In this document: in pieces, positions 36,777 through 37,604 of the stretch | How the letters are laid out: every line of letters begins with the position of its first letter | How positions within the stretch are numbered: position 1 is the first letter of the stretch | Sequence record: NC_054914.1 | Strand: one strand, 5' to 3' | DNA: 64,000 bases | Source: Escherichia phage vB_EcoM-fFiEco06 | Program-made: the position numbers and the translations under genes | Notes under the pieces: model-generated | Database searches by the model: none | Seen by the model: only the letters and a program-made list of their open reading frames with translations | Told to the model about the DNA's origin: nothing

Positions 36777-36852
36777 TGGTCGAGGCAGTAGGGATCGAAC
36801 CTACGACCCAGGACTTAGAAGGTCCTTGCTCTTCCTTCTGAGCTATGCCTCG
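36777..36852 (-). tRNA. tRNA-Arg (anticodon UCU)
   Basis: Hand-folded cloverleaf: acceptor CGAGGCA/UGCCUCG, anticodon loop CUUCUAA, T-arm GGTTCGATCC, encoded CCA. Confidence 0.8.
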
Positions 36853-36856
36853 TATT

Positions 36857-36931
36857 TGGCGGACGTGATAGGATTCGAACCTATAACCAATCGCTTAACA
36901 GGCGATCGCTCTGCCATTGAGCTACACATCC
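36857..36931 (-). tRNA. tRNA-Asn (anticodon GUU)
   Basis: Acceptor GGATGTG/CACGTCC, anticodon stem ATCGC/GCGAT with loop CTGTTAA, T-loop TTCGAAT, CCA. Confidence 0.7.
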
Positions 36932-36935
36932 AAAT

Positions 36936-37022
36936 TGGTGGGGAGTGGTGGAGTCGAACCACCCGAGTCGCAATGACAATGAATTTACAGTCCACACCGC
37001 TACCTCTACGGGATAACTCCCC
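36936..37022 (-). tRNA. tRNA-Tyr (anticodon GUA), long variable arm
   Basis: 87 nt; acceptor GGGGAGT/ACTCCCC, anticodon loop CTGTAAA, T-arm GGTGGTTCGACTCCACC, CCA. Confidence 0.65.
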
Positions 37023-37031
37023 AAATTAATT

Positions 37032-37106
37032 TGGTGGCCCTGGGTGGAATTGAACCACCATCTGGCGATTATGAGTCGCTTGCTTGAACCTTCCAGCTAC
37101 AGGGCC
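37032..37106 (-). tRNA. tRNA-Ile/Met (anticodon CAU)
   Basis: Acceptor GGCCCTG/CAGGGCC, anticodon loop CTCATAA, CCA. Confidence 0.75.
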
Positions 37107-37107
37107 T

Positions 37108-37183
37108 TGGTGCTGATTGACGGAATCGAACCGCCGACCTTCTCATTACAAGTGAGTTGCTCTACCTACTGAGCTAAATCAGC
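37108..37183 (-). tRNA. tRNA-Thr (anticodon UGU)
   Basis: Acceptor GCTGATT/AATCAGC, anticodon loop CTTGTAA, T-arm GGTTCGATTCC, CCA. Confidence 0.8.
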
Positions 37184-37188
37184 AAAAC

Positions 37189-37278
37189 TGGCGGAGGCGA
37201 TAGGATTTGAACCTATGAGTCGCCGGAGCGACTGCCGGTTTTCAAGACCGGTGCATTAAACCACTCTGCCACGCCTCC
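37189..37278 (-). tRNA. tRNA-Ser (anticodon UGA), long variable arm
   Basis: 90 nt; acceptor GGAGGCG/CGCCTCC, anticodon loop CTTGAAA. Confidence 0.8.
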
Positions 37279-37280
37279 AG

Positions 37281-37354
37281 TCTCCGTGGCAGGATTTGAA
37301 CCTACGACATTCTGCTCCCAAAGCAGACGCTCTACCAAACTGAGCTACACGGAG
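37281..37354 (-). tRNA. tRNA-Pro (anticodon UGG), CCA not encoded
   Basis: Acceptor CTCCGTG/CACGGAG, anticodon loop TTTGGGA; separated from tRNA-Ser by 2 nt. Confidence 0.8.
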
Positions 37355-37364
37355 TAAATTAAAT

Positions 37365-37438
37365 TGGAGCGGATAATGAGAATCGAACTCACATCATCAG
37401 ATTGGAAGTCTGAGGTAATACCATTATACGATATCCGC
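37365..37438 (-). tRNA. tRNA-Gly (anticodon UCC)
   Basis: Acceptor GCGGATA/TATCCGC, anticodon loop CTTCCAA, CCA. Confidence 0.8.
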
Positions 37439-37443
37439 AAATT

Positions 37444-37530
37444 TGGTGCGAGAAGTGGGACTCGAACCCACAAGGAAATCATTCCGCAGCATTTTAAGTG
37501 CTGTGCCTTTACCAATTTGGCCATTCTCGC
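37444..37530 (-). tRNA. tRNA-Leu (anticodon UAA), long variable arm
   Basis: 87 nt; matches T4 tRNA-Leu as recalled (GCGAGAATGGTCAAATTGG...). Confidence 0.85.
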
Positions 37531-37531
37531 G

Positions 37532-37604
37532 CTGGGAATAAAGGACTCGAACCTTTGCATCCTGGAATCAAAATCCAGTGCCTTACCAACTTGGCTAATT
37601 CCCA
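37532..37604 (-). tRNA. tRNA-Gln (anticodon UUG), CCA not encoded
   Basis: TGGGAATTAGCCAAGTTGGTAAGGCACTGGATTTTGATTCCAGG...; abuts tRNA-Leu with a 1-nt spacer. Confidence 0.85.

Follow-up and report, generated by a model that had tools for sequence, protein, structure and literature searches.

A ten-tRNA operon of the T2/RB3 type in Escherichia phage vB_EcoM-fFiEco06 and the probable counter-defence role of its tRNA-Tyr

Escherichia phage vB_EcoM-fFiEco06 (NC_054914.1) carries ten transfer RNA (tRNA) genes, all on the minus strand, at 36777-37604 of the 64,000-nucleotide stretch of its DNA that was analysed (the window). The cluster is very probably a Tequatrovirus tRNA operon of the T2/RB3 type, which serves codon supply, contributes a counter-defence through its tRNA-Tyr and is exchanged by homing of the endonuclease SegB. 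The layout was published in 2008 and the anti-defence role of this exact tRNA-Tyr in 2024-2026; that role was described for an identical gene of phage T6 and is predicted for fFiEco06 by analogy.

Gene layout and T-even relatives

ARAGORN, run on the whole window, returns the ten genes with exactly the coordinates and anticodons that an earlier note on this DNA had given. The spacers, in transcription order 0, 5, 10, 1, 5, 1, 9, 4 and 4 nt, are too short for genes to intervene, and the contiguity described there also stands. Open reading frames (ORFs) drawn inside the cluster were rejected as genes: all are mechanical frames with TTG or GTG starts, on both strands, that overlie the tRNA genes.

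The gene order, Gln-Leu-Gly-Pro-Ser-Thr-CAU-Tyr-Asn-Arg-rnaD-rnaC without segB, is that of the T2/RB3-type operon. Among classic T-even isolates, RB3 shows this arrangement in full: all ten tRNAs in identical order, rnaD and rnaC immediately after them, and no segB. The T2 set consists of Gln, Leu, Gly, Pro, Ser, an ORF, CAU, Tyr, Asn and Arg. Apart from this ORF, which lies where the window and RB3 carry tRNA-Thr, only point differences separate RB3 and T2 from the window, and the block Ile2-Tyr-Asn-Arg (37106-36777) is 99.4% identical to T2. Identity is 100% over 36300-37800 with Escherichia phage vB_EcoM-fHoEco02 and with five further Tequatrovirus records. In all, 1023 phage records match this region, 443 of them with the layout shared across at least 80% of the query.

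T4 carries eight tRNAs and has segB where the window has Tyr and Asn. It is homologous to the window in Gln-Leu-Gly-Pro-Ser-Thr, in the upstream ORFs tRNA.2-.4 and in the rnaC/terminator region, with 95.3% identity over 37800 to 37095 and 89.9% over 36830 to 36428. Homology is lost within the CAU gene, at about 37095, and regained within the Arg gene, at about 36830. By sequence comparison the difference from T4 is more than two added genes: the CAU and Arg genes are unrelated alleles, identical to T2 at 75/75 and 76/76 positions but to T4 at only 47/77 and 50/80. The earlier note had put eight tRNAs in T4, with segB and further ORFs between Ile and Arg. The eight tRNAs and the position of segB are right, but segB is the only ORF there, and tRNA.2, tRNA.3 and tRNA.4 lie upstream of Gln. 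To present the cluster as something beyond T4 is misleading, as the ten-tRNA layout is the common allele already described for T2L, RB1 and RB3.

The T6 set is Gln, Leu, Gly, Thr, Ile, Tyr, segB and Arg, with no Pro or Ser genes. Compared with the window, T6 has segB in place of tRNA-Asn and T4-type Ile and Arg alleles, and its tRNA-Tyr occupies the same slot after the CAU tRNA. The T6 locus is thus a hybrid of T4- and T2-type modules; the locus as a whole is mosaic, and the breakpoints in the window fall in tRNA genes.

How did these layouts come about? The tRNA regions of T2L, RB1 and RB3 have been sequenced and lack segB; the preferred SegB cleavage site lies within their tRNA-Asn gene, and T4 homing excludes an approximately 1250-bp T2L region that encodes Met(CAU), Tyr, Asn and Arg (Brok-Volchanskaya et al., 2008; PMC2330249). 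segB is absent from the 64-kb window, where tblastn searches with the SegB proteins of T4 and T6 gave no hit below E=1.3. In the phage collection, a contiguous Tyr-Asn pair is present in about 394 records, and full-length segB in about 126. These counts and the 2008 paper suggest that T4 represents the endonuclease-invaded, less common allele. The T4 arrangement Ile-segB-Arg would then be the remainder after segB homing and co-conversion replaced the Ile2-Tyr-Asn-Arg block.

tRNA-Tyr, codon demand and homing

The tRNA-Tyr (GUA) gene, at 36936..37022 on the minus strand, is a class II gene of 87 nt with the phage-type variable arm UGUCAUUGCGACUCG. It is identical to the T6 gene (87/87), nearly so to those of T2 (86/87) and RB3 (85/87), and 78% identical overall to that of T5. 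The PtuAB system Septu Ec-B88 cuts tRNA-Tyr within its variable loop upon infection. Overexpression of the T6 tRNA-Tyr rescues T6 from Septu, T6 with its tRNA region deleted becomes sensitised, and escape mutants of T6 amplify the Tyr-segB unit; T4, which has no tRNA-Tyr, is unable to escape, and T2 is resistant (Chihara et al., 2026; PMC13096335). A T5-family tRNA-Tyr counters the PtuAB of Retron-Eco7 (Azam et al., 2024; PMC11555353). When a library of phage tRNAs was screened against PtuAB, tRNA-Tyr was the only one enriched. The fFiEco06 tRNA-Tyr would accordingly restore the pool of tRNA-Tyr that is destroyed on infection by PtuAB (Septu, Retron-Eco7), or stand in for it as a decoy.

The same action is proposed for the T5 tRNA-Tyr, which would replace degraded host tRNA-Tyr. 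It has the same anticodon as the window's gene, an identical variable arm and a T arm with one difference in the 3' strand. It is unlike the window's gene in its 5' half (acceptor, D arm and anticodon stem) and lies, with a strong promoter of its own, in a tRNA region that is large and dispersed. Three tRNAs of the cluster share their anticodon with a nuclease-targeted host tRNA: Tyr GUA (PtuAB), and Asn GUU and Thr UGU (AriB, P2-OLD). The suggestion that Tyr and Asn replace host species attacked by anticodon nucleases is supported for Tyr, since the identical T6 gene counters Septu; it differs in one detail, as the PtuAB cut falls in the variable loop and outside the anticodon.

Codon supply would be the second function. 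In a rough comparison of mechanically chosen ORFs of the window with a 49-kb E. coli sample, the A-ending codons read by the eight tRNAs that T4 also has (Gln, Leu, Gly, Pro, Ser, Thr, Ile2 and Arg) are used 1.6-8.2 times as often as in the host (CAA 1.7, UUA 3.2, GGA 3.8, CCA 1.6, UCA 3.7, ACA 3.5, AUA 6.0, AGA 8.2). These eight tRNAs would top up scarce host species in an AT-rich phage. Tyr is used at 45.0 per 1000 codons against 25.4 in the host (1.8x) and Asn at 62.0 against 37.1 (1.7x), with UAU enriched 2.5-fold and AAU 3.5-fold, in keeping with the codon-usage support that had been proposed for the two. Tyr(GUA) and Asn(GUU) would each read both codons of a two-codon box and so meet a demand about 1.7-1.8-fold that of the host.

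Several points weigh against an operon that combines codon supply with counter-defence. Septu Ec-B88 also cleaves the T6 tRNA-Tyr, at C48, although its variable loop reads AUUGC where host tyrU has ACA. Wild-type T6 with a single copy is intermediately resistant, and full escape needs SegB-driven amplification (PMC13096335); with no segB in the 64-kb window, tandem amplification of tRNA-Tyr by this route is unavailable from the region. The full resistance of T2, unexplained in the same paper, could have another cause. On the supply side, there is the roughness of the codon comparison, and Lys, though over-used to the same degree (76 vs 46 per 1000), is served by no phage tRNA, so that the set of tRNAs carried is not predicted by demand alone. 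For tRNA-Asn, whose host counterpart (GUU) is a secondary target of the PARIS nuclease AriB, T4 and T7 escaped PARIS without needing Asn (PMC12409363), and tRNA-Asn of T5 or SP15 alone gave no rescue against PrrC. Since the main AriB target, tRNA-Lys(UUU), has no counterpart among the phage tRNAs, Asn alone should not defeat PARIS.

Could codon and amino-acid supply account for tRNA-Tyr and tRNA-Asn by itself, any defence effect being incidental? This is unlikely, though it has the usage figures behind it, the demand being mostly for UAU and AAU. When a strong phage promoter drove it, E. coli tRNA-Tyr rescued infection as well as the phage tRNA (PMC11555353), which implies that dosage outweighs sequence. 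However, deletion of the T6 tRNA region alters plating specifically on Septu hosts, and the escape mutants amplify the Tyr gene (PMC13096335); pure supply likewise leaves Lys unexplained. Moreover, the tRNA-Tyr genes of Tequatrovirus, Vequintavirus, Karamvirus, Certrevirus and Tequintavirus diverge in their 5' half but do not vary in the variable arm UGUCAUUGCGACUCG or in the 5' half of the T arm, which suggests a constraint beyond decoding.

It is also improbable that homing-endonuclease traffic, and not selection on the tRNAs, governs the presence of Tyr and Asn, the block simply persisting where segB has not yet invaded. The SegB site in tRNA-Asn, the replacement by homing of a segment with Met(CAU), Tyr, Asn and Arg, the breakpoints inside tRNA genes and the T6 hybrid (T4-type Ile and Arg, T2-type Tyr, segB for Asn) would all be expected, and T4 is viable without Tyr and Asn tRNAs. 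Yet the Tyr-Asn pair outnumbers full-length segB in the records; Dhakavirus JS10, of a separate genus, retains CAU-Asn-Arg with the same 4-nt spacers; and unrelated phages of the genus Vequintavirus carry nearly identical Tyr, Ile2 and Thr genes. These three observations argue for retention, or repeated acquisition, under selection.

Identity of the tRNAs and possible roles of Asn and Thr

Nine of the ten tRNAs pass the gathering score (29 bits) of the Rfam tRNA model RF00005, at 59.9-74.1 bits and E values of 1e-10 to 1e-14. At the 5' end of the operon, on the minus strand like all ten, tRNA-Gln (UUG; 37531..37604; 67.4 bits) is identical to T4 at 66/74 positions, class II tRNA-Leu (UAA; 37444..37530; 64 bits) at 86/87, and tRNA-Gly (UCC; 37365..37438; 65.8 bits) is 74/74 identical to T4, T6 and T2. 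Then come tRNA-Pro (UGG; 37280..37354; 69.7 bits) and class II tRNA-Ser (UGA; 37189..37278; 62.6 bits), which is 90/90 identical to T2. The T2-type tRNA-Arg (UCU; 36777..36852; 65.8 bits) closes the series.

Is the tRNA-Tyr call genuine? The covariance model bears out one of the two calls that the earlier note had singled out, tRNA-Asn, which at 74.1 bits is the top score of the cluster. It leaves tRNA-Tyr below threshold, yet the relatives of this gene also score low. No RF00005 match of at least 29 bits was found for tRNA-Tyr, whose best match in the clan, with hits allowed up to E<=1, is tRNA-Sec at 30.9 bits, under the cut-off of 47 for that family. With the same RF00005 model E. coli tyrU gives 53.4 bits, but the phage genes of CC31, SE8 and phiWec196 reach only 39.1, 33.0 and 29.9 bits, and that of T5 falls below threshold. 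Low scores run through the whole family of phage tRNA-Tyr genes and do not count against this one; they result from irregularities of the structure, namely the D-stem mismatch C12xC23 and, in the anticodon stem, two G.U pairs. ARAGORN nevertheless draws a cloverleaf with an acceptor stem of 7 bp, T stem of 5 bp, anticodon stem of 5 bp and variable stem of 3 bp, and in the GenBank record of an identical phage Tyr(GUA) carries a tRNAscan-SE 2.0 score of 51.2. Among the tRNA-Tyr genes of the window, RB3, phiWec196, CC31, F5M1E, SE8 and T5, the anticodon stem covaries: U-A/C-G at 28:42, G-C/A-U/U-A at 29:41 and G.U/G-C at 30:40. A73, G1-C72, the long variable arm and the GUA anticodon are consistent with the identity rules of the bacterial tyrosyl-tRNA synthetase, TyrRS. 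Single-sequence minimum-free-energy folds of Tyr or Asn give no cloverleaf and were treated as uninformative for tRNAs.

That the gene is a decayed or non-functional tRNA-like sequence is therefore very improbable: its Rfam score, mismatched stems and non-cloverleaf fold, and the description of the T6 tRNA-Tyr as relatively unstable-looking (PMC13096335), would fit, but the identical T6 gene is seen by northern blot and by tRNA-fragment sequencing and rescues infection (PMC13096335), rescue by the related SP15 tRNA-Tyr requires the anticodon and intact stems (PMC11555353), compensatory changes at 28:42 and 29:41 and the TyrRS identity features are in place, and the whole phage family scores low beside tyrU. 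A pseudogene was ruled out on the control scan of relatives and tyrU, the anticodon-stem covariation and the T6 experiments.

Phage tRNA-Tyr genes from five genera have the irregular D arm in common, and the frozen stretch spans the variable arm to the T loop inclusive. It could reflect evasion of nucleases or, equally, gene conversion driven by an endonuclease. All phage copies are low on Rfam, and those of CC31 and F5M1E are missed by ARAGORN; the other copies compared include L012 1208-1293, L013 305-393 and L008 3005-3092.

The CAU tRNA (37032..37106, minus strand) is of the tRNA-Ile2 type, nearer to the host tRNAs of the ileX/ileY kind than to those for Met, with lysidine modification, AUA reading and Ile charging predicted from its sequence. 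Its best E. coli matches, 81.6% over the full length, are present in 5424/5426 genomes and are annotated as tRNA-Ile throughout among the matches listed. With E. coli tRNA-Ile(CAU) it shares the GGCCCT...AGGGCC acceptor stem and the anticodon arm AGCGACTCATAATCGCC. The C4-G69 and C5-G68 pairs of this stem are determinants for TilS, the enzyme that would turn C34 into lysidine. Its labelling as elongator or initiator Met by ARAGORN, by tRNAscan and in the 2008 paper was rejected on the E. coli best matches and the shared acceptor and anticodon arms. The gene is 74/75 identical to that of the unrelated Vequintavirus phage phiWec196.

Do tRNA-Asn and tRNA-Thr also take part in defence? Host tRNA-Asn(GUU), a secondary AriB target (PMC12409363), is also a P2-OLD substrate and a target of colicin E5, and host tRNA-Thr(UGU) is a substrate of both AriB and P2-OLD. 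The phage tRNA-Asn (GUU; 36857..36931, minus strand; 75/75 identical to T2 and RB3) has the anticodon arm AUCGC/CUGUUAA/GCGAU where the host has GCGGA/CUGUUAA/UCCGU. It carries U39G and C41G relative to the host, and position 39 lies inside the AriB site UAAUC|C, from which cleavage resistance can at most be predicted. The CNG motif, a determinant for P2-OLD, is absent at 28-30 and at 40-42. A defence role for tRNA-Asn, which thus differs from the host at AriB and P2-OLD determinants, is possible but doubtful.

tRNA-Thr (UGU; 37108..37183, minus strand; 72.9 bits) has exactly 12 differences from E. coli thrU, G30C, C40G and U43A among them. Its anticodon arm, ACUCA/CUUGUAA/UGAGA, has a 4-bp stem and CUC instead of the host CUG. 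Likened by description only, it fits the P2-OLD-resistant phage tRNA-Thr6 (PMC12445682), which has 12 differences and the same three substitutions. The Thr genes of T4 and T6 retain a 5-bp stem (C27-G43). The window's Thr allele is found at 99% identity or more in 269 phage records. T5 brings a tRNA-Lys/Thr/Asn set to bear on PARIS AriB (PMC12409363); the window has the same Thr(UGU) and Asn(GUU) anticodons, and its Asn has G39 as in T5. It is unlike the T5 set in having no tRNA-Lys(UUU), and its Asn is only 60% identical to T5 Asn. Judged from the stem substitutions only, tRNA-Asn and the Thr allele may play a replacement role against Toprim tRNases (PARIS AriB, P2-OLD).

The operon as a whole, its flanks and significance

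The cluster is the tRNA part of a longer minus-strand operon, in which rnaD, rnaC and a terminator follow. The small stable RNA of species 2, rnaD (36655..36775), is 118/120 identical to the annotated rnaD of RB3, and that of species 1, rnaC (36511..36649), is 139/139 identical to RB3 and 137/139 to T4 rnaC. The strong intrinsic terminator at 36430..36460 has a 10-bp stem with 7 G-C pairs, a GAAA loop and a TTTTT tract. Upstream of tRNA-Gln, 37711..37739 reads as a sigma-70-like promoter (TTGAAT, 17 nt, TATTAT; consensus match 9/12), but such sites are no commoner here than in shuffled sequence and this one is a candidate only. A single minus-strand transcription unit would extend from about 37740, upstream of Gln, through the ten tRNAs, rnaD and rnaC to the terminator at about 36437. 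In T4 the operon transcript is cut into the mature RNAs by host enzymes, and the same would apply here.

Within rnaC, at 36533-36523 on the minus strand, is a perfect tRNA T-arm motif, GGTTCGAATCC, which is the core of the SegB recognition sequence GGTTCRANTCC. The motif occurs 10 times in the 64-kb window, always on the minus strand, and 9/10 of the occurrences are within the tRNA operon. Two minus-strand ORFs with TTG starts, 36400-36561 (53 amino acids) and 36567-36695 (42 amino acids), overlie rnaC, rnaD and the terminator. At nearly the same coordinates an identical GenBank record has the 'hypothetical protein' coding sequences HE2_134 and HE2_135; almost certainly these are false calls placed on genes for small stable RNAs.

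Downstream, between e.8 and the rnaC terminator, a 157-amino-acid ORF (35913-36386, minus strand) belongs to phrog_2280, of unknown function, and has no Pfam match. T4 and RB3 have no gene at this position. In many related phages similarity to the window ends at about 36420-36430, and 35913-36386 is therefore a variable insertion slot. Scans of the flanking ORFs against PHROGs and Pfam gave only families of unknown function. Upstream of tRNA.4, 38634-38879 and 38944-39201 (minus strand) are the internal-protein genes ip6 and ip5 by the annotation of the identical record; T4 and RB3 have ipI there, which makes this another hypervariable slot beside the tRNA operon. In the Vequintavirus phage phiWec196, a 99-nt tRNA-like gene (L009 1663-1761) lies between Thr and Ser; ARAGORN reports it as 'tRNA-???' with a four-base anticodon (atcc), and it scores 37.5 bits with the Rfam tRNA model. 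It may be a frameshift-suppressor-like or a degenerate tRNA.

A more speculative proposal, held only tentatively, is that the T2-type block constitutes a compact kit of nuclease-resistant replacement tRNAs, with Asn and Thr directed against P2-OLD and AriB in addition to the anti-PtuAB Tyr, which SegB strips or reshuffles. If true, such a three-way conflict between host defence, phage and endonuclease would account for the mosaic layouts of T2, T4 and T6. For annotation, T4 is the atypical T-even phage at the tRNA locus, and most sequenced Tequatrovirus genomes have the ten-tRNA operon free of segB. The presence or absence of tRNA-Tyr helps to predict sensitivity to Septu and Retron-Eco7, which is relevant to the choice of T4-like phages for therapy.

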